Part shown: piece after piece, positions 28,148 to 38,663 of the stretch
Position numbering within the stretch: position 1 is the stretch's first letter
Layout of the letters: each line of letters begins with the position of its first letter
Assembly (NCBI GenBank): GCA_046290465.1
Contig: JBKAGP010000001.1
Coordinates: forward strand, 3,104,001 to 3,168,000
Source of the DNA: Planctomycetota bacterium
Lineage (GTDB): Bacteria; Planctomycetota; UBA1135; UBA2386
Reading direction: 5' to 3'
Length of the DNA: 64,000 bases
Position numbers and translations under genes: made by a program
The notes under the pieces: generated by a model
Told to the model about the DNA's origin: nothing
Database searches by the model: none
Seen by the model: the letters and a program-made list of their open reading frames with translations, nothing else

Positions 28148-29350
28148 TCACCTGCCCACAGCGGGCTTGCGGTAGCGCGTGATCGCAAACCCGATCGGCG
28201 CCGGGCCGGGGTCGTTGCCGCGCTGGTTGAAGCGGTGCGCGCCCTTCCGGGAGCCGAGCGCGACCAGCTCGAAGCGGACCAGATCGCGCTTGCGGTCGTC
28301 GTAGAGGCCCTCGCCGTACAGCTGCGCAGTGATCGACCGCTCGCCGTCGTCCATCGCCACCTCGCCCCCGTAGACGACCGTCGTCATGCCCTTCTGGCTG
28401 GGGCCGCGGCGCATCGTCAGCGAAGCCTTGCGCACGTGCTCGGCCTTCCACGTCGAGGCCTGGCCGCGCACGTTGTCGATCAGCATCTCACGCGCGAGCC
28501 TGGTCACGAACTTGGCGTCGACCGGTTGCGGCTTCGACGACTTCGCCGGCACCAGCGCGCGCCAGTCGTCGACGGCCTGCCAGTTCTCGTTCCACGCCCA
28601 CTTGGTGAACGCCATCCACCCGGCCTTCAGGTGCGTGTCCTTGTCGAACCGGCACTGCTCGCCCTCGCCGCGCGGCAGGTCGCGCGAGTGCACGCGCAGC
28701 ACGAACTCCTGGCCGTCGAGCCGCGCCGGCAGCGTCGTGACGACCTTGGGCACCGGCTCGTTGGCGTAGCCCTTGTCCTTGCGCAGCTTCTCCCAACGCT
28801 CGAGCGCGCGCTCGAGGCGCTCGACGATGTCGTCGGGGAAGCCGCTCGCGGCGAACCGTCCCTCGAGATACTCGCCGTCGGGCCCGATCATGTAGAGGCC
28901 CTGCTTGGTGCCCGGATGGTTCCAGTCGCCCTTCGGCATCGCCTCGCCGAAGCGCTTGAAGAACTGGTGCTCCGGCCGGTCCTGCACGCGCTTCAGGTTC
29001 CACTCGTCCTCCGGGTAGAGCATGTAGACCTCGTCGGCGACGGTGACGAAGTTGCGGCTCAGCTCGGCGATCTTCGGGTCGGACCAGACCAACTGTCGGC
29101 CCCGCACACCGTTGTTTCAGGTGCACCCGAGCGGGTGCCCGTTCATCGTCCAGAACAGGATCGGACGGCCGAGCCGACGCGCCTCCTGCACCGCCGGCCA
29201 CAGCGCGTTGCGCCAGCCGATCTCGCGGTAGCTCTCCTCGTGCGCGGCCGGCTGCACGAACGTCAGCCACTCGCGGAAGTTGTCGGCGTCGGGTCGCGGC
29301 GGGTCCTGCGGAGCCAGGAGCGCCAGGAAGGCCAGGCTGGTCGTCAGCAT
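28148..29350 (-). CDS. Putative selenoprotein A (thioredoxin-like, CxU; Sec at TGA 29119-29117), ~400 aa, probably secreted
   Basis: ORFs 29117..29569 and 28148..29107 share a frame, joined as WTMNGHPLGCT-TGA-NNGVRGR. The paralog at 37503 has the same join and a SECIS-like hairpin follows. Alternative start 29362. Confidence 0.85.
29080..29104 (-). promoter_or_regulatory. SECIS-like hairpin of selenoprotein A
   Basis: GGGCC-GAC[AGUUG]GUC-U-GGUCC with a bulged U; loop starts 22 nt after UGA, G at loop position 2. Confidence 0.7.
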
Positions 29351-29373
29351 GGCCGCGATCATAGCGGCCGCAG

Positions 29374-30249
29374 CTACTGCACGACCTCGAGCAACTCGAC
29401 ATCCAGCTGGTAGATGTCGACGCAGTAGCCGTCGATGTGGGTCTCCTTCACCGAGAGGCGGCCGACCAGCTTGATCGGCTCGAACTGGTAGTCGACGCGG
29501 CGGCCCTCGGCCATCCGGCAGCGCACGATGCCGTGCACGTCGGGCGGCGTGCCGTAGCAGCACGACCACAGCGAGCTGACCAGCAGGAACTCACGCATGT
29601 CCTCGACCTCGTCGAGCGGCAGCATGAAGCCGAGCATCAGCACCTGCAGGCCGTCGAGCGCGCGCACGGCGTCCGGTGCGCCGATGAGACCTTCGGTGTA
29701 CTTCCAGCCGCTCAGTTCGTCGAACGGCAGCACCCGGTCGACCCCGGCGATCTTGCCGTTGGCGATCATCTCCTGCAGCTTCTTCTCGGCCGCCAGCATC
29801 GCCTCCGCAGAACGCATCGCAGCGAGGTCGGCCGGATCGGTACCCTTGGGCAGTTCGCGGCCGTCGGGGTTGTTGCCGCCGGGATTGCTGCCGCCAGGAT
29901 CACCGCCGGCCGGCCGCAGCGGCCCGTCGACGCCGTTCGGCCCACCGACACCATCCGGCGCCTGCGCGACCTCGCGATCACCTGGCGGCGCATCGCCACC
30001 GGAGTCGGCGCGGTTCAGCCGCCACGCCAGCACCGTGACCCCGAGGCCGAGCAGCAGCACCGCGGCGACCAGCATCCGGTAGGCGCTGGCCGACGACCCG
30101 GTGGGCGTCGCCCGCTCCGGCCCGGCCGCGACGCGGGCCAGGATCCGCTCGGCGCGATCCGGAGGCGACGCGCGCTCGGCGAGTTCGTCGAAGGCGTGGT
30201 CGAAGTGTCGCTGCTCGACCGACTCTGGCTCGTGCTGCTGATCCGTCAT
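29374..30249 (-). CDS. Putative anti-sigma factor with periplasmic DUF3299-like domain
   Basis: Coupled to the ECF gene; single TM; ALDGLQVLMLGFMLPLD...EFLLV...SCCYGTPP. Confidence 0.75.
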   Translation of the reverse strand: MTDQQHEPESVEQRHFDHAFDELAERASPPDRAERILARVAAGPERATPTGSSASAYRMLVAAVLLLGLGVTVLAWRLNRADSGGDAPPGDREVAQAPDGVGGPNGVDGPLRPAGGDPGGSNPGGNNPDGRELPKGTDPADLAAMRSAEAMLAAEKKLQEMIANGKIAGVDRVLPFDELSGWKYTEGLIGAPDAVRALDGLQVLMLGFMLPLDEVEDMREFLLVSSLWSCCYGTPPDVHGIVRCRMAEGRRVDYQFEPIKLVGRLSVKETHIDGYCVDIYQLDVELLEVVQ

Positions 30250-30836
30250 GACGACTCCTGTTGCATCCTCCGCTGCACGCATTCGCGCAGCGCCTTGCGC
30301 GCGCGCGACAGCAGCGACTTGATCCCGTTGGCGCCGATGCCGAGGCGGCCGGCGACCTCGCTGCACGACGCGCCGTCGAGGTGGTGCCACTGCACCGCAT
30401 CGCGCATGCGACCGTCGAGCCGGTCTACGCAGCGCCGCAGCAGCTCGATCCGTTCGTCCTCGAGCGCGCTGGCGTCGTCCCGCAGGTATTCGTCGACCTC
30501 CTCGAGCCACTGCACGGTCGGCGGCTCGCGCCGGCTGCGGCGCCGCGCGCCGAGCAGCAGGTTGCGGGCGGTGCCGCGCAGGTAGGCGGCGACATCGACG
30601 ATGCGCTCGCCCGACAGCAGCCGTTCGGCCGCGATCACGAACGCATCCTGCATCAGGTCGTCGGCCTCGTGCGGGTCGGCGCCGAGCAGCCGCAGGTAGC
30701 GCCAGACCATGCGCTGGTGCGCCCGCACCAGGGCGGCGAAGTCGGCCATCACGCCGCTCGCGGCCGGGCCGGGCGCGGGGCGCTCGCTGCGTTCGATTGG
30801 CTGCACGGCGGGCATCGTCTCCGCTGGTGCCCGCAC
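30246..30836 (-). CDS. ECF sigma-70 factor (start uncertain)
   Basis: EADDLMQDAF (region 2), LRRCVDRL...EVAGRLG...IKSLLSRARKALREC (region 4). Confidence 0.9.
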   Translation of the reverse strand: MRAPAETMPAVQPIERSERPAPGPAASGVMADFAALVRAHQRMVWRYLRLLGADPHEADDLMQDAFVIAAERLLSGERIVDVAAYLRGTARNLLLGARRRSRREPPTVQWLEEVDEYLRDDASALEDERIELLRRCVDRLDGRMRDAVQWHHLDGASCSEVAGRLGIGANGIKSLLSRARKALRECVQRRMQQESS

Positions 30837-30876
30837 CCGGGTCCGCGGGTGCAGGATTCTGCAGAAAAGCCGGGCG

Positions 30877-31863
30877 CTACAGGAACAGCCGGTGCTGCCG
30901 GAAGCGCTCCTGGATGCCTGCGTCGCCGTCGACGACGCGCGGCCGGATGCCGCCGCAGATCTGGATCAGGCGCTCGGCCAGCGCGCGAACGGCCAAGGAC
31001 GTCGGCGCTTCGGGCTCGGTGACGACCAGCGGCAGCTGGCCGAGGCGATGCTGCATGACCGAATCGTCGTCCGGCACCTCGCCGAGGTAGCGAAGCTCGA
31101 CCCCGACGTTCTGGTTGGCGACCTCGGTCAGCCGCTGGAACGCCATCTCGCCGCGGCCCGGCGTGCTGACGCGGTTGACGACGATCAGGAAGCGGGCGTC
31201 CTGCTTGATCTGGGCGATGCACTTGATGACCGCGTAGGCGTCGACCAGCGCCGCGATCTCGGGCTGCGTGACCAGCACGATCCAGTCCGCGCCGAGCATC
31301 GACAGCACCGTCGCCGGCGCGATGCCGGCGCCGAGGTCGAGCAGCAGCGCATCCTCCTGGCCGGCCAGCGCGCCGAGTTCGCGCGCGAACGCGGTCAGGT
31401 CCTTGTCGCTCGGGTTGGCCATGCGGCGCACGCCGGACGCACCGGGCAGCAGCCGCGGCCCGCACGGCGTCTGGATCAGCACCTGGTCGAGCGTGCACTG
31501 GCCGGCGAGCAGCTGCTGCAGGGTCAGCGTCGGCTTGACGCCGAGCAGCAGGTGGTCGCAGGCGAGGCCGAAGTCGCAGTCGACCAGCACGGTCTTGCGT
31601 TCGGCTCGGTGCAGCAGCACCGCCAGCGACGTCGCCAGGAACGACTTGCCGGTGCCGCCCTTGCCGCTGGCGATCGCGATCGAGGTGGCTTCCTCGCGGG
31701 GTGCGGGCGGGGCGCGCAGGCCTTCGAGCAGACGGCCGAACAGGCCCTTGCCGCGCGGGCCGAGCGCGGAGCCGAGCCCGCCCTTCTTGCGAGGCGCGCC
31801 GCGTCCCTTCTGGCCGTCGACCGCCGCACCGTCGGCGATCTGTCCGTTGCCCGCTCCGTCCAT
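30877..31863 (-). CDS. MinD/FlhG-like ParA-family ATPase
   Basis: IAIASGKGGTGKS, VDCDFGLA, LLDLGAGI, ALVDAYAVIK. Confidence 0.88.
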   Translation of the reverse strand: MDGAGNGQIADGAAVDGQKGRGAPRKKGGLGSALGPRGKGLFGRLLEGLRAPPAPREEATSIAIASGKGGTGKSFLATSLAVLLHRAERKTVLVDCDFGLACDHLLLGVKPTLTLQQLLAGQCTLDQVLIQTPCGPRLLPGASGVRRMANPSDKDLTAFARELGALAGQEDALLLDLGAGIAPATVLSMLGADWIVLVTQPEIAALVDAYAVIKCIAQIKQDARFLIVVNRVSTPGRGEMAFQRLTEVANQNVGVELRYLGEVPDDDSVMQHRLGQLPLVVTEPEAPTSLAVRALAERLIQICGGIRPRVVDGDAGIQERFRQHRLFL

Positions 31864-31966
31864 GATGTATGAGAACGACCCCCCACGGGTCGGCGCGTCC
31901 GACCACGCGCTCGGCCAGTTTCGCAGATCCGCCGAAAAAGGGCAGGCCCTTTCTCGGGACCGGCGG

Positions 31967-33337
31967 CTATTCCGGCAGCAGTTCGCGCGCGTAGCGGATC
32001 GGCACGCCGAGGTTGTTGCCGTCGAAGTTGCGCTGGATGGCGAAGTTGACGGCGATCACGTCGCCCGAACCGCTGAACACCGGGCCGCCCGAGCCGCCGC
32101 TGGTGGTCGCCGCGTCGTAGGCGATCAGGTGGTCCTCGACATTGCTGACGACGCCCTCGGTGATCACCGGCGCGATCTCCCCGGCGGCCGCCAGCTGCGC
32201 GATCGCCTCGGTCATGGTGGCTGCCGACTTGCGCAGCCGTTCGAGGGTCTCGCTGTTGGCGCGCGCCAACAGCGCCGCCAGGCCCGTCGGGTAGCCGACC
32301 ACGATCGCGCGTTCGTCCTCGCCCTCGGTGCCGTCGCTGCGCAGCGGCAGCACCGGGATGCCCTTGGCCTCCGCCGGCTGGATGCGCAGCATCGCGACGT
32401 CGAAGTCGTCGCTGCGGCGCCGGATGGTCTTCTGCGCGACGTCCATCGGGCGATGCCGCGGGAACGTCACCGTCAGCTCGGTGAACACCGGCTTCGCACC
32501 GATCTCGAGCAGCGGCTGGATCGCCGGCTCCTCGGTCCACGGCAGCGCCACGTGACGGTTGGTCACGATGTAACCCTGCTCGCTGACCAGGAAGCCCGAG
32601 CCGGTGTACTCGCTCACCCACGGCTCGCCGGCGCGCGGCTCGAACCACGAACCGTCGCTCATCTCGAGCTGGTAGATGCCGTGGATCAGGCAGACGCCGC
32701 GCGACAAGTTCTTCTGGATGTCGCGCACGACCTCGTTGGCCTTGATCAGCCGGTCGATCTGCTCCTGGTACTCGGCGCGCATCTGGTCGACCTCCTCGCG
32801 CGTCACGCGATCGGCGGTCAACCGTTGCTCGGCCTTGCTCAGCTCGCTCCCGAGCCACCACCACAACAGCAGCGCGACCGCGGCGAACAGCAGCGGGAAG
32901 CCGACCTTGAGCGTCGGCGTCGCCTGCGTCAGCAGGTCGCTGGTCAGGGTGCGCGTCGCCGTCGCGGTGCCGCTGTGCCTGGCGACCTCGGCGGCGTCGT
33001 AGAGCATGCGACGCACCGGCTTGCAGACCGCGCCGACCGGCACGTAGACGCGGAAGCGCGCCATCGGCCCGCCGGGGCCGAACTCGATCAGGTCGCCGTC
33101 CTTGAGGATGATCTCCTCGACCTCACTGCCGTTGACGAACGTCTGGCCGTCGACGCGGCGCAGGTGGAACTTGCACTCGTCCTGCTGCCACTCGACGCGC
33201 GCGTGTTCGTCGGCGACCAGCGCGTGGGTCAGCGCCACCTCGTTGCTCGGCGTCCGGCCGATGCGCACCACGGGCTGCTTGTAGGTGATCGTGCGACCAC
33301 GCAGCGGTCCGGAAAGGTGCAGCAATTGTGCGCGCAT
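31967..33337 (-). CDS. FHA domain - TM - trypsin-like serine protease
   Basis: IGRTPSN...EHA...TFVNG...LKDGDLIEFG (FHA); GSGF, TNRHV, DVAML, GGSGGP triad motifs. Confidence 0.88.
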   Translation of the reverse strand: MRAQLLHLSGPLRGRTITYKQPVVRIGRTPSNEVALTHALVADEHARVEWQQDECKFHLRRVDGQTFVNGSEVEEIILKDGDLIEFGPGGPMARFRVYVPVGAVCKPVRRMLYDAAEVARHSGTATATRTLTSDLLTQATPTLKVGFPLLFAAVALLLWWWLGSELSKAEQRLTADRVTREEVDQMRAEYQEQIDRLIKANEVVRDIQKNLSRGVCLIHGIYQLEMSDGSWFEPRAGEPWVSEYTGSGFLVSEQGYIVTNRHVALPWTEEPAIQPLLEIGAKPVFTELTVTFPRHRPMDVAQKTIRRRSDDFDVAMLRIQPAEAKGIPVLPLRSDGTEGEDERAIVVGYPTGLAALLARANSETLERLRKSAATMTEAIAQLAAAGEIAPVITEGVVSNVEDHLIAYDAATTSGGSGGPVFSGSGDVIAVNFAIQRNFDGNNLGVPIRYARELLPE

Positions 33338-33355
33338 CGACGCACCATAGTCCGG

Positions 33356-34117
33356 GTGTCCGACTCCGCCAATCCACACGTTCTGGTCGAGGTCTGCGTC
33401 GAGTCGGTCGCCGGCGCCTACGCGGCCGTCGTCGGCGGGGCCGAACGGATCGAGCTGTGTTCCAGCCTGGCGGAAGGCGGGCTGACCCCCAGCGCCGGGC
33501 TCTGCCAGGCGGTCGCGGCGGCGGTGCAGGTGCCGGTGTTCGCGATGATCCGACCGCGGGCCGGCGACTTCCTCTACGACGGCACCGAGGTCGACGTGAT
33601 GTGCCGGGACCTGGAGGCGCTGCGAGAGGCCGGTGCGGCCGGGTTCGTGGTCGGTGCGCTGACCGCGGACGGCCAGGTCGACCGCCGGCGGATGACCGAG
33701 TTCGTCGACCTCGCCGAAGGCCTGCCGGTGACGTTCCACCGCGCGTTCGACGTCTGCCGGGATGCCGACGAGGCGATCGACGTGCTGTGCGAACTCGGGG
33801 TCGCGCGGCTGCTGACGTCCGGGATGAAGGCGGCGGCCCCCGACGGCAAGCGCGAGATCCGCGCAGCGGTCGCGCGCGCCGGGGATCGGCTGACGGTGAT
33901 GGCCGGCGCCGGCGTGCGCGACGACAACGTCGTGCGGCTGGTCGAGGTGACGGGCGTTCGCGAGGTGCACCTGTCGGCCGCGGGCCAGCGCAAGAGCCGG
34001 ATGGCGTTCCGCCGCGACGGCGTGCCGATGGGCACGGCCAGCCAGGACGAATACCACGTGCGCACCACCGAGGAGGCGGTGGTCGCGCGGGTCGTCGCCG
34101 CGCTGCGGAATCGGTGA
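33356..34117 (+). CDS. cutC: Copper homeostasis protein CutC
   Basis: EVCVES, GAERIELCSSLAEGGLTPS, MIRPRAGDFLY, TFHRAFD, RLLTSG. Confidence 0.93.
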   Translation: MSDSANPHVLVEVCVESVAGAYAAVVGGAERIELCSSLAEGGLTPSAGLCQAVAAAVQVPVFAMIRPRAGDFLYDGTEVDVMCRDLEALREAGAAGFVVGALTADGQVDRRRMTEFVDLAEGLPVTFHRAFDVCRDADEAIDVLCELGVARLLTSGMKAAAPDGKREIRAAVARAGDRLTVMAGAGVRDDNVVRLVEVTGVREVHLSAAGQRKSRMAFRRDGVPMGTASQDEYHVRTTEEAVVARVVAALRNR

Positions 34118-34137
34118 AGCCGCGATACGATGCGCGC

Positions 34138-34608
34138 ATGAGCACGGCGTCGCACCCGCTCCTCGACTCGATCTCCACGCTTCTGGAGACGTCCCCCACT
34201 CCGTGGGACGACGTGCTCGCGGAGCTCACCCGTTACTTCGACTGCCCGGTCGGCACCGTGCACACGCTCGACGACGGCGACGGCATGCTGCACCTCGAAG
34301 CGCAGCGCGGCCTGCCGCCGCCGGTGCTCGGCAAGGTGCAGGTGATCCCGATCGGCAAGGGCATGGCCGGCATCGCCGCCGAGCGCAAGGAGCCGGTGCA
34401 GGTCTGCAACCTGCAGACCGACGACAGCGGCGTCGCGCGCCCCGGCGCCAAGATGACGCAGATGGAGGGCTCGCTGGCCGCACCGATGATCCGCGACGGC
34501 GCCGTCCGCGGCGTGCTCGGCGTCGCCAAACCCAGCGCCTACGACTTCACCCGCGAGGAAACCTCCCTCCTCCTCGCCGTCGGCGCCCTGCTGGCCGAAC
34601 GCACCTGA
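34138..34608 (+). CDS. Stand-alone GAF domain protein
   Basis: IPIGKGMAGIAA...VCNLQTD...SLAAPM...GVLGV. Confidence 0.85.
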   Translation: MSTASHPLLDSISTLLETSPTPWDDVLAELTRYFDCPVGTVHTLDDGDGMLHLEAQRGLPPPVLGKVQVIPIGKGMAGIAAERKEPVQVCNLQTDDSGVARPGAKMTQMEGSLAAPMIRDGAVRGVLGVAKPSAYDFTREETSLLLAVGALLAERT

Positions 34609-34609
34609 C

Positions 34610-34653
34610 GTTCCGTAAGTCTGGTTCCGGGACGAAAACCTACAAACCGGACC
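34610..34653. repeat. Second, inverted copy of repeat family C
   Basis: Reverse complement resembles 24314-24357 with about 5 mismatches. Confidence 0.85.
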
Positions 34654-34728
34654 TTGGGATGCGGCGAGCGGTCTCGCTGGGGATGGGAGCCGCCGATGCG
34701 GCCTCCGACCCACGAACCCCACGATCCC

Positions 34729-37029
34729 ATGATCCCCCAGCAGTCCCTGCGCCGGCTCGCCGGCGCGTCCGTCCTCCTCACCACCCTGGCCGTCGGCCAA
34801 CAGCCGCAGCTGACCCAGACGAGCCCGCCGCAGCACGATCCGGTCGTGCCGATCCACACGGCGGCCGACGACGAAGGCCACGCCTACGGCATCTGGGGTG
34901 CGGGCCCCGGCTACAAGATCTCGTTCCACGACGGTGCGACGCTGGTGCCCTATCTCGGCAAGGCCTACCCGCACAACCAGCCGTGGACGTGGCGCACGAC
35001 CTCGGTGCGGCTCGGCGGCGTCGAACTGGCGACGCAGGCGCCGCGGCTCAGCTACGGCGGCGTGCTGGCCAGCTACGACCTCGGCGGCGTGACCGAAGCG
35101 TGGGAACTGCGCCCCGACGGCGCCGAGCAGACGTTCGTCATCGACCAGCGGCCGGCGGCCGGCGAACTGGTCGTGCAGGGCGTCGTGCAGTCGATGCTGC
35201 AGGCCGACGCCGCCACTGCCGCGCACCAGCCGCTCTCGTTCCGTGACGGCGACGGGCTCGAACTAGTCCGCTACGGCACAGCGATCGCGATCGACGCCAA
35301 CGGCCAGCAGCGCGCGATGACCACCAGCCACCGAGACGGCACCATCACGCTGCGCCTCGACGCCGCCTGGCTCGAGACCGCCGCGTTCCCGCTGGTCGTC
35401 GACCCGCTGGTCGGCCCCGGCACCAACGTGACCGGCAACACCCGCTACGAGGTCGACGTCGTGCGCTGCGCCGAGACCAGCGTCGAACCCAACTGGGTCG
35501 CCTACTCGGTCTACGCCTCGCTCGGGGACGCCGACGTCTACACCCGCCGCTGGAACGACGACGGCACGATCGGCTCGGTGCCGTTCACCGACGTCACGTC
35601 GTCGTGGTCGACCAACGACCCCGCAGCCGCCTACAACGCCAGCGCCAACAGCGCGGTGTTCGTGTTCGACCGCAGCTTCCCGAGCAGCAGCACGCGCCGC
35701 ATCCGCGCCCACCGCCACCTGCGCAGCGACTACGTCAGCAACACCACCTACGACGTGTTGCCGTCGACGGACAACGCCTGGCGCTCGGACGTCGGCGGCA
35801 CCCGCTACAACCAGGCCGGCGACCTCGTGATGGTCGTCTACCAGCAAGAACCCAACAACGGTGGCGGCTTCCAGTCGACTTCGGGGACGGACGTGTTCGC
35901 GATCCCCTACAACGCCGTGACCGGCGCGTTCGGCAGCCCGATCGGCGTCGGCACGGCGCAGTTCTCCGACAACGAACGGCCGTCGATCAACCAGGTCTCG
36001 ACCAGCTTCGGGCCGACCGCCAACTGGCTGGTCTGCTACCAGAGCCGCAACAACCTGATCATCGGCCCCAACCCCAACAACGACGACTGGGACCTGAGCG
36101 TGCGCGAGGTCGACAGCAACGGCGGCGTCAACGGCTTCCTCACGATCGACGGCGGCAACGGGGACCACAAGTTCGCGCCGCAGATCGCCGGCGCCAGCGG
36201 TCGCTACCTGGTCGCCTACGTCACCAGCCCGATCTCGGCGAGCACGCCGTTCGGACGGATCGGCCACCAGATCCGCACCATGCGCGTCGACTGGCCGGCG
36301 CTGTCCGGAGCCGGCGTGACCCCGCATCCGTCGCGGCTGCTGGTCTCGAGCCCGTCCGCCACCCGCGAACTCGGCAGCCTCGCGTTCGATCGCAACAGCT
36401 ACAGCCACTGGGCGCTGCTCGACCGCAACGCCGGCAGCGGCGACCTCAGCATGCGCCTGGTCGGCTACACCGGCAGGCTGCTGCGTTCGGAGCTGGTGTT
36501 CAACGCCAGCAGCACCCAGCTCGGCGTGCTCGGCGGCCTGTCGTTCGACGCCTTCGACGACGAGTTCGCGATCGCCTACGCCTACAACCAGAACGGCAGC
36601 GACGTGACCACCATCGACCGCTTCCAGTATCCGTTCGTGTTCAGCCCGTCGACCGCCGGCACCGCCTGCAGCCCCGCCAGCATCTCGTGGTTCGGCTCGC
36701 AGCAGATCGGCAGCGAACTGAGCGGCGTCGCCGTCGACGGCGCGGCGTTCGACTCCATCCACATTGCGGCACTGGCGACCGCACCGGCGAGCGCGGTGCT
36801 GTTCGGCGTGCCGCCGATCCAGAACGGCTGCTGGCTGCTGGTCGCCAACGCCGGCCCGGACTACCTCGGCCTGTTGGACGTGCGCGTCGGTGCCAACGCC
36901 TCATGGGAGCTGCCGCTGCCCGAGTTCCTGTCGGCCGACACCTACTACGTGCAGGGCTGGCACACGGTCGGCGGCGGCAACTTCGACTTCGTCAGCACGC
37001 AGCGCCTGGCGGTGCCGACGATCAAGTAG
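34729..37029 (+). CDS. Large secreted beta-rich hypothetical protein
   Basis: Signal peptide; N-terminal domain ending AFPLVVDPL; Ser/Thr/Asn-rich beta repeats. Confidence 0.8.
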   Translation: MIPQQSLRRLAGASVLLTTLAVGQQPQLTQTSPPQHDPVVPIHTAADDEGHAYGIWGAGPGYKISFHDGATLVPYLGKAYPHNQPWTWRTTSVRLGGVELATQAPRLSYGGVLASYDLGGVTEAWELRPDGAEQTFVIDQRPAAGELVVQGVVQSMLQADAATAAHQPLSFRDGDGLELVRYGTAIAIDANGQQRAMTTSHRDGTITLRLDAAWLETAAFPLVVDPLVGPGTNVTGNTRYEVDVVRCAETSVEPNWVAYSVYASLGDADVYTRRWNDDGTIGSVPFTDVTSSWSTNDPAAAYNASANSAVFVFDRSFPSSSTRRIRAHRHLRSDYVSNTTYDVLPSTDNAWRSDVGGTRYNQAGDLVMVVYQQEPNNGGGFQSTSGTDVFAIPYNAVTGAFGSPIGVGTAQFSDNERPSINQVSTSFGPTANWLVCYQSRNNLIIGPNPNNDDWDLSVREVDSNGGVNGFLTIDGGNGDHKFAPQIAGASGRYLVAYVTSPISASTPFGRIGHQIRTMRVDWPALSGAGVTPHPSRLLVSSPSATRELGSLAFDRNSYSHWALLDRNAGSGDLSMRLVGYTGRLLRSELVFNASSTQLGVLGGLSFDAFDDEFAIAYAYNQNGSDVTTIDRFQYPFVFSPSTAGTACSPASISWFGSQQIGSELSGVAVDGAAFDSIHIAALATAPASAVLFGVPPIQNGCWLLVANAGPDYLGLLDVRVGANASWELPLPEFLSADTYYVQGWHTVGGGNFDFVSTQRLAVPTIK

Positions 37030-37096
37030 ACCGCCGTGCCGCGCCGTGACGTGCTTGGTGCGTTCGCGCCGAGCACGTCTGGCATCGTCGCCGACG

Positions 37097-37470
37097 ATGC
37101 TCGGCTCGATCGCGATCATCTCGCTGCTGGTCGGCGGCATCGGCATCATGAACGTCATGCTCGCGACGTCACCGAGCGCACTCGCGAGATCGGCATCCGG
37201 CGCGCGCTCGGCGCGCGTCGCAGCAGCATCGTGTGGCAGTTCTTGATCGAGACGATCGTGCTCCGCTCGATCGGCGGCCTGCTCGGCGTGCTGTTCGGCG
37301 TCGGCATCCCGGCGATCATCACCCTGCTCAGCGGCAACCTGACGATCGTGCTCGCGCACCACGTCGCGCTCGCCGCCGGCATCTCGATCGCCGTCGGCCT
37401 GTTGTTCGGCCTCTATCCGGCGTGGCGGGCGGCGTGCATGGATCCCGTCGAAGCCCTGCGACACGAGTAG
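37097..37470 (+). pseudogene. Truncated, frameshifted MacB/FtsX-type ABC permease C-terminus
   Basis: [16 protein letters not shown] in one frame, [16 protein letters not shown]...[18 protein letters not shown] in another. 1-nt loss near 37167; no N-terminal part. Confidence 0.85.
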
Positions 37471-37502
37471 CTGCGCATCGGTCGCGGTATCCTGGGCGGA
37501 CC

Positions 37503-38663
37503 ATGCGCGCCCTCCCCGTGGCCTTCGTGCTGTCGTCGCTGGCGATCTCCGCGACGGCGCAGTCTCCCCAACTCGACCAGGCCCGATTCACCAAGCTGCA
37601 CCGACAGCTGCGCCCCGACCCCGACGCGATCTGGCGCAGCATCCCGTGGCGCATCGACCTGCTCGCCGCCCAGCGCGAGGCAGCCGAACAACGCAAGCCG
37701 CTGTTCGTCTGGGCCATGGACGGCCACCCGCTCGGCTGCACCTGAAACAACGGCGTGATCGACCGTGTGTCGACGTTCGCCAACCAGGAGATGGCCACGA
37801 TGCTGCGCACGCAGTTCGTGCCGGTCGCGATCGACCAGGCCTACGAGCGCCGGCAGCAGGACGCCGAAGGCGAGTTCTACCGCAAGTTCGCCGGGCAGGG
37901 TCCCCGCGGCGACTTCGCAGGAACGACCCAGGGGTTCTACGTGGCGACGGCGGCAGGAGACCTGCTGCTCTACAACAACAACCGCGACCCCGCGAAGGTG
38001 CTTCGCCTGGCGAAACGAGCGCGCGAGCGGTTTGCCGCGAGCCCGGCGGCGAAGGCCGAGGTCGCGTCGATCGACCACGGCCGCGTCGACGCGCGCTACG
38101 CCGTCACCCCGCCCAGCGGCGGCCTGGTCGTCCGGGTGCACGGCAAGGTGCTCGGCGGCTACGCCCCCACGGACGAACCGTTCCAGAAGGCGATGCAGCA
38201 GGCCTTGTCCCGCGACAACCTCTGGATCACGCAGGAAGAACGACAGGCGCTGCTCCGCGGCGAGCTACCGGATGCACTGATGCGTCGCCTCGCGCGCTAC
38301 CACCTCGTCGACGGGACGCGCGGCGAACCACCGATGTGGCGAGCGGACGAGGTCTTGACCCTCGACGTGCATCGCAAGGGCGACCGCGTCTCGGGTCGCA
38401 TACGCCTGGGCACCAAGGACGGCAAGCGTGGCTACGAGGCCTCCTTGCTGGGCTTCGTCGCGACCGAGGGCGAACGCGTCACGCGCTTCGACCTGGTCGT
38501 CGACGGTACGTTCCACGGCGAAGGCCGCTACACGCGAGGCGCCCCGGAAGGAGCGTTCCCATTCGCCGTCGCGTTCTCGCTGGCAGACGGCAGCGATGTC
38601 GCCGACGCGATCCCGCCACAGGGCTCACGCGGCTGGGTCGACGGTTACCTGAAGGCGCGCTGA
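37503..38663 (+). CDS. Putative selenoprotein B (thioredoxin-like, CxU; Sec at TGA 37743-37745), 386 aa, probably secreted
   Basis: ORFs 37233..37745 and 37755..38663 share a frame, joined as WAMDGHPLGCT-TGA-NNGVIDR. Signal peptide present; homologous to selenoprotein A on both sides of the TGA. Confidence 0.87.
37752..37781 (+). promoter_or_regulatory. SECIS-like hairpin of selenoprotein B
   Basis: GGCG..UCGAC[CGUGU]GUCGA..CGCC; loop starts 18 nt after UGA, G at loop position 2. Confidence 0.72.

Follow-up and report, generated by a model that had tools for sequence, protein, structure and literature searches.

The in-frame UGA codons of two genes in the window, a stretch of 64,000 nucleotides of a Planctomycetota genome, are each followed by a hairpin that is very probably a canonical bacterial SECIS element. 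SelB is predicted to bind each hairpin through the GU of its loop, with the UGA read as selenocysteine (Sec) in two paralogous thioredoxin-fold proteins. We directly observed the hairpins and their excess over what synonymous recoding yields, compensatory pairing in one of their positions (register 1), their loss from most homologs that lack Sec, and a Sec machinery in the genome. From the established biology of Sec insertion, SelB would bind the loop GU and the in-frame UGA upstream would be decoded as Sec. The features are as follows.

37503..38663, plus strand: gene B, 386 aa, a predicted exported thioredoxin-fold selenoprotein (signal peptide judged by eye alone) with Sec81 in GHPLGCT-U-NNG; the ORF is open through one TGA
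37743..37745, plus strand: in-frame UGA of gene B, predicted Sec codon; the ORF is open across the TGA, and the letters are identical in contigs of runs X2 and X6
37752..37781, plus strand: whole predicted hairpin of gene B including a lower GGCG/CGCC helix (RNAfold)
37759..37773, plus strand: upper SECIS hairpin of gene B, UCGAC[CGUGU]GUCGA, register 1; loop 37764-37768, with G at +20 and U at +21 as in E. coli fdhF (RNAfold, covariation, RNAalifold)
28148..29350, minus strand: gene A, a 400-aa paralog of gene B with Sec78 in GHPLGCT-U-NNG
29117..29119, minus strand: in-frame UGA of gene A, predicted Sec codon (read from the sequence)
29081..29102, minus strand: predicted SECIS of gene A, GGGCCGAC[AGUUG]GUC-U-GGUCC, register 2; loop 29094-29090, with G at +24 (RNAfold, synonymous codon biases)

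Genes A and B share 27.6% identity over 398 aa (E 5e-23), a relationship absent from the sequence-only reading that first drew attention to them, and are the only two family copies in the genome. Two split 'hypothetical' genes are each likely to be a single selenoprotein. The UGA and hairpin of gene B showed no differences in contigs of two public runs, X2 and X6, of which X2 is possibly the source sample. The one RNA run had no piece spanning the UGA and says nothing on expression. Upstream of gene A lie a DUF3299 protein, an ECF sigma factor, a ParA/MinD ATPase and an FHA-trypsin protein (window 29374-34057, minus strand). Gene B is preceded by a short piece of an FtsX C-terminus, possibly the remnant of a gene (37036-37470, plus strand).

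The hairpins are present as first described, with a GAC/GUC stem closing a 5-nt loop that carries GU, and they do lie in different codon phases. The loop starts 18 nt past the UGA in gene B, where the TGA is followed by AACAAC GGCG TGA TCGAC [CGTGT] GTCGA CGTT CGCC, and 22 nt past it in gene A. RNAfold, proposed as a check on both regions, returned both hairpins at -11.1 kcal/mol (37746-37781 for gene B), that of gene A making up 89% of the ensemble. These energies did not rise above those of dinucleotide shuffles, either on the short stretches (z = -0.14 for B, -1.88 for A) or on 58-nt stretches (z = +0.64 and +0.09). In a 70% GC genome, where folding of single sequences does no better than shuffles, comparative evidence is needed. 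The lower GGCG/CGCC helix of gene B was not recovered across orthologs, RNAalifold retaining just the five upper pairs. With the peptide fixed, 20,000 synonymous recodings gave the exact motif in 1.75% of cases for B and in 0.15% for A; since these same two sites had served to define the motif, the percentages are upper bounds on the surprise. An Rfam search over 28900-38000 gave three chance-level matches, none at either hairpin site.

It could be argued that the hairpins are by-products of a conserved protein encoded in GC-rich DNA and that the UGA genuinely ends translation or undergoes read-through by another mechanism. The folding z-scores near zero would fit, as would the finding that the peptide of gene A gives some NGU hairpin in 42% of its synonymous recodings. 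Gene callers also split the family genes, 119 of the best 120 database matches covering just 74-78% of the query. We nevertheless regard this explanation as extremely improbable, given the family-wide excess of hairpins over the synonymous null and the covariation in register 1 (both described below), a TGA fixed where 16 of 54 full-length homologs have Cys, and the co-occurrence of the family with SelB.

For the family-wide comparison a hairpin was called on an N-G-[G/U] loop, and the null kept each peptide and resampled its codons over 300 rounds. Of 157 Sec sites, 139 had a hairpin call where recoding gave 18.5±3.9 (maximum 35), counts that, like all family counts here, are inflated by kinship, related sequences not being independent. 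When spacing was left free there were 133 calls against 27.2±4.5. Among 2,289 in-frame control windows from the same genes the hairpin rate was 1.1%, or 6.2% with free spacing. The remaining 18 of the 157 Sec sites had no hairpin call. The 157 comprise 156 TGA sites and gene A.

Covariation across orthologs, which had been put forward as a further check, was clear in the register of gene B and slight in that of gene A. In register 1 (61 sites, with CGT at codon +7) 83.6% of cells were paired, against 67.7% when shuffled. Two-sided changes were found in 67 cells, against 24 in the shuffles; none of 500 shuffles was as high, and slid controls stood at 27-40%. RNAalifold, unaided, recovered the same five pairs. 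Codon usage, in classes set by the peptide alone, shows the same pattern: Arg7 is the rare codon CGT in 58 of the 65 register-1-type peptides, those in which the next residue is not R or Q (8.6% background), and the codon after it begins with G in 64 of the 65. Ser9 is TCN in 108 of 108 cases, never AGY. In register 2 there was little two-sided covariation (pairing 72.8% against 73.2% shuffled, and 81.5% against 80.3%), and RNAalifold did not recover a register-2 consensus, returning instead a different, weak three-pair helix at -0.6 kcal/mol.

Homologs without Sec have mostly lost the hairpin. It was kept in 2 of the 12 for which DNA was available, a count from which one locus (L260), misaligned by one codon and with CGA at the Sec position, was excluded. 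Among Cys forms it was kept in 2 of 7 (L174, titled Gemmatimonadaceae, and L194), so that the hairpin is conserved in UGA-containing orthologs (139 of 157) and not equally in Cys forms, although the loss is incomplete. The synonymous null, the register-1 covariation and this loss together bear out the earlier suggestion of constraint at the level of RNA: the constraint on the hairpins is RNA-level. Scans for the Cys pattern gave 31 loci, of which five were true homologs; two weak HMM matches (12-13 bits) and 24 loci with no match were dropped. These Cys forms from outside the phylum are L166, L174 and L180 (Gemmatimonadota titles), L192 and L194, and the hairpin in two of them suggests a recent conversion of Sec to Cys. 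L260 itself encodes Arg at the Sec position and has an intact hairpin, which points to a recent loss or a sequence error.

The family is large. A profile of the Sec-bearing domain matched in 127 of 401 phylum genomes. Besides the genome studied here, the RNA-binding domain of SelB was found in 118 of the 126 family-positive genomes, compared with 282 of 400 overall. The eight family-positive genomes without SelB comprise two with Ser forms (G179 and G337), one with a marginal match and five with TGA copies in draft assemblies. At the Sec column, 158 unique aligned sites gave 156 TGA, one TGT and one GAC; these sites (from L005-L164) are the best-ranked family matches, not all of them, and the query was built from Sec members. 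In the 54 full-length database proteins covering this position, the residue is Cys in 16 and Ser in 13. The named database homologs are from Planctomycetota. Two database proteins (P0011 and P0128) show Trp at the Sec position, probably a TGA translated under code 4 by the gene caller. A wider superfamily of divergent thioredoxin-fold genes (L246-L263, in G142, G265, G369 and G395) has C-U at the same column and Arg at +7, with up to nine matches per genome and a register-1 hairpin in many.

The Sec-bearing domain is predicted to adopt a thioredoxin fold (AlphaFold2 pLDDT 94.4), and the top Foldseek and VIA matches were all to thioredoxin folds. The matches are of the DsbH, Thioredoxin_7 and AGR type (PDB 3f9u, 3ph9, 2ju5 and 7tkv), with a VIA Z of 12.6 and rmsd of 3.6 over 123 aligned residues and a Foldseek E of 3.5e-4. 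On the predicted model, exported thioredoxin domains of this type share the fold, but the family has C-T-U where they have CxxC, and identity is 11-18%. Sec insertion would give a predicted exported thiol or selenol redox protein with a C-T-U site. Matches to NCBIfam 20.0 and Pfam stayed below the curated cut-offs (NF041383 at 14.2 bits against 275, PF13899 at 17.8 against 27), gene A having no match. A PDB sequence search returned AGR2 alone, at E 1.6. The family may resemble eukaryotic selenoprotein N (SELENON); a word-limited search with a profile of 19 divergent members gave 37 matches, none named selenoprotein N. On comparison by description, no entry in Table 1 of PMC13188914 could be matched to the family; the table includes a CxU thioredoxin-like entry, WP_232817751.1. 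Candidate selenoproteins from Planctomycetes, hypotheticals among them, are given in PMC4807772. A literature search that covered open-access papers and passages of BSepDB produced no paper on the A/B family.

The stems of genes A and B are at non-homologous positions. In gene B, Asp6 (GAC) pairs with a G and the TC of Ser9; in gene A, the CGA of Arg7 and a C pair with Val10 (GTC). Within the stretch that encodes R-S-V-W-S-D, GTC occurs at +24, +28 and +33, and the hairpin could likely re-form one step downstream as a result of these repeats. A G at +24 is present at 144 of the 157 sites, where register 1 uses it in the closing pair and register 2 as the loop G. Fourteen sites satisfy both registers, and members that fold both ways around this shared G would offer a plausible route for switching from one to the other.

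Codon choice in the 92 peptides in which Arg7 is followed by R or Q fits register 2. Arg7 is purine-ending in 78 of them (36% background), Val10 is GTC in 81 of 84 (49% background), and AGA or AGG is used in 20 of 92 (4.6% background). Loop positions 1 and 4 of register 2 also change together, with G/C in R-S peptides (50 of 78) and A/U in Q-V/L/F/M peptides (13 of 78). It might be proposed that the gene B hairpin is a true SECIS and that the RR/RQ genes, gene A included, use a weaker hairpin that keeps the loop G at +20, with no sliding at all. Register-1 pairing does partly persist in these peptides (53-85 of 92 for each pair), and the failure of RNAalifold to find register 2 and the few two-sided changes in that register also speak for this proposal. 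We consider it unlikely. The synonymous biases at +21, +30 and +19 fit register-2 pairs only, gene A in register 1 would form only three pairs, two of them G-U, where its register-2 hairpin dominates the ensemble, and the co-change of loop positions 1 and 4 also argues for register 2.

A third register, with the loop GGUC 31 nt past the UGA, is tentative. It was seen in eight sequences of one clade, all with the rare Ser codon TCA, and the V-W-S-D peptide gives a register-3-like hairpin in 18-42% of recodings.

Register switching was also examined on a quick protein tree built without the residues that encode the SECIS (156 rows, 135 columns). On this tree the registers, which were defined after the data had been seen, need 11 changes where the minimum possible is two. 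Well-supported branches force at least three changes for register 1 and at least four for register 2. An AU test on the 119 unambiguous rows, run with no mixture model, rejected a single register-1 clade (p 0.0094). Gene A falls in a supported group of 11 together with the eight sequences whose best hairpin is 31 nt out. It is likely that the position of the hairpin has switched several times within the family.

We lean towards a broader reading, in which this is a large, uncatalogued and almost purely Sec-using Planctomycetota family whose SECIS has repeatedly slid between discrete registers (18, 22 and perhaps 31 nt) along GTC words, by way of sequences that fold both ways. The sliding would have forced amino-acid choices, restricting position +8 to residues with GNN codons in register 1 and setting R-S against Q-V/L/F in register 2. 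If this is true, the family is a natural mutational library for the spacing tolerance of SelB, and a case of an RNA signal steering protein evolution. The switches, if real, would make it straightforward to ask how much displacement of a SECIS SelB can tolerate. A search of the open-access literature found no paper on register switching inside a family.

The sequence-only reading had gone further, proposing that the two sites, with the GAC/GUC stem they share, reveal a SECIS consensus specific to the lineage, with which more selenoproteins could be mined. A GAC[NGUNN]GUC consensus demanded by the local SelB is, we judge, highly improbable. It has in its favour that no other single form is as frequent in the family as the exact motif, found at 64 of 157 sites (32 in each register) against 1.5 expected. 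Outside the family the stem is absent: it occurs at none of the 19 other known-family Sec sites of the genome and at none of 21 SelD Sec sites from other genomes of the phylum. The suggested comparison with the SECIS of selD therefore went against the proposal, the genome's own SelD also lacking the stem, and the FdhA of this genome has no in-frame stop and so no fdh SECIS to compare. Even within the family the stem triplets swap by compensation in register 1 (GGC/GTC, GAT/ATC and AGC/GCT). What survives of the shared architecture is the NGU loop, which recurs on a stem at 14 of the 19 Sec sites; among the other coding-flanked TGAs 3 of 63 have it, and among random TGAs 9%. The GAC/GUC stem common to A and B is a habit of the family and no code for recognition.

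The motif fared no better as a mining tool. It follows 31 of the 102,602 TGA triplets in the genome; 29 of these matches are not coding-flanked, the other two are A and B, and no new gene emerged. A covariance model of register 1 found family homologs only, Cys forms included, and found them by sequence. A rule requiring complementary bases around the loop GU (N1-GU-N1') was devised after the sites of this genome had been viewed, and held at 13 of the 19 there, at 4 of the 21 held-out SelD sites (8 of 21 if GG is allowed) and at 12 of 25 further family Sec sites. The looser NGU loop was present at 11 of the 21 SelD Sec sites and in none of four true Cys SelD, a comparison that leaves out another 'Cys' row, which proved a false match to the pattern, and the 5 of 30 loci that were not parsed.

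The hairpins agree with what is known of bacterial SECIS elements. The bSECISearch consensus, as given in the Fig. 2A legend of PMC13188914, has an apical loop of 3-9 nt, an upper stem of 4-16 bp and an MFE of -7.5 kcal/mol or lower; base 1 or 2 of the loop is a G with G or U after it, and the distance to the UGA is 16-37 nt. Both hairpins agree with every item of this legend: the upper stem is 5 bp in B and 8 bp with one bulge in A, both fold at -11.1 kcal/mol, and the loops CGUGU (B) and AGUUG (A) lie 18 and 22 nt out within the coding region. The premise that bacterial SECIS elements sit just 3' of the UGA with a G early in the loop matches this published model and E. coli fdhF. In E. coli fdhF, fdnG and fdoG (NC_000913.3) the loop has G at +20 and U at +21, the exact offset of gene B; G23 and U24 of the E. 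coli SECIS are named as conserved in PMC8659212. The 5-nt NGUNN loops of E. coli (GGUCU and AGUCU) also occur in register 2 of the family, but the E. coli stem is unrelated (GCA/UGC) and the loop of gene A is 4 nt further out. According to PMC4605307, SelB binds the hairpin through WHD3-4 and a hinge accommodates differences in spacing. In the model of PMC13188914 (N1-G-[G/U]-N-N2) the base that opens the loop forms a pair with one further along; here, both in the genome and across the family, complementarity is frequent between loop positions 1 and 4 (CGUG, GGUC, AGUU, UGUA), though as a tendency only, few SelD sites of the phylum sharing it. As far as these sources describe it, the NGUNN loop is a general bacterial consensus and not a new lineage-specific code.

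The host genome encodes tRNA-Sec, SelA, SelB (found by its SelB wing) and a SelD with its own in-frame TGA. A codon-model scan found 87 TGAs with coding sequence on both sides. The 19 known-family Sec sites were assigned by Pfam or NCBIfam matches across the TGA (15), as SelD (one) or by eye as TlpA paralogs (three), and two of the 19 lie outside the 87. An NGU loop combined with two-sided coding potential picks up the majority of the genome's Sec sites and points to several others.

The genome appears rich in selenoproteins, with about 27 candidate Sec sites, of TlpA/Prx/AhpC, MsrA, deiodinase-like, SelL-like, AhpD, rhodanese, HMA-like and SelD types. Four read-through candidates with clean SECIS-type hairpins had no Pfam or NCBIfam match: L264 (G000:C1:4743133, plus strand), L267 (1516015 and 1516270, plus), L270 (3355753, minus) and L283 (5453431, minus). 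L267 contains a pair of in-frame UGAs with a separate hairpin for each, and L264 aligns with divergent relatives of the A/B family. Two FG-GAP repeat proteins with W-U-C motifs (L266, at G000:C1:3756620, plus strand, and G000:C1:5536341, minus) carry near-identical TCCAC[AGTTC]GTGGA hairpins; a planctomycete FG-GAP selenoprotein candidate is listed in Table S9 of PMC4807772. The loop rule picked out further candidate TGAs at G000:C1:2991886 (minus), 148912 (plus), 1490290 (plus), 3935042 (plus), 3975429 (minus) and 216014 (plus), among them an HMA-like GMT-U-GGC site and two identical S-U-S-C repeats.
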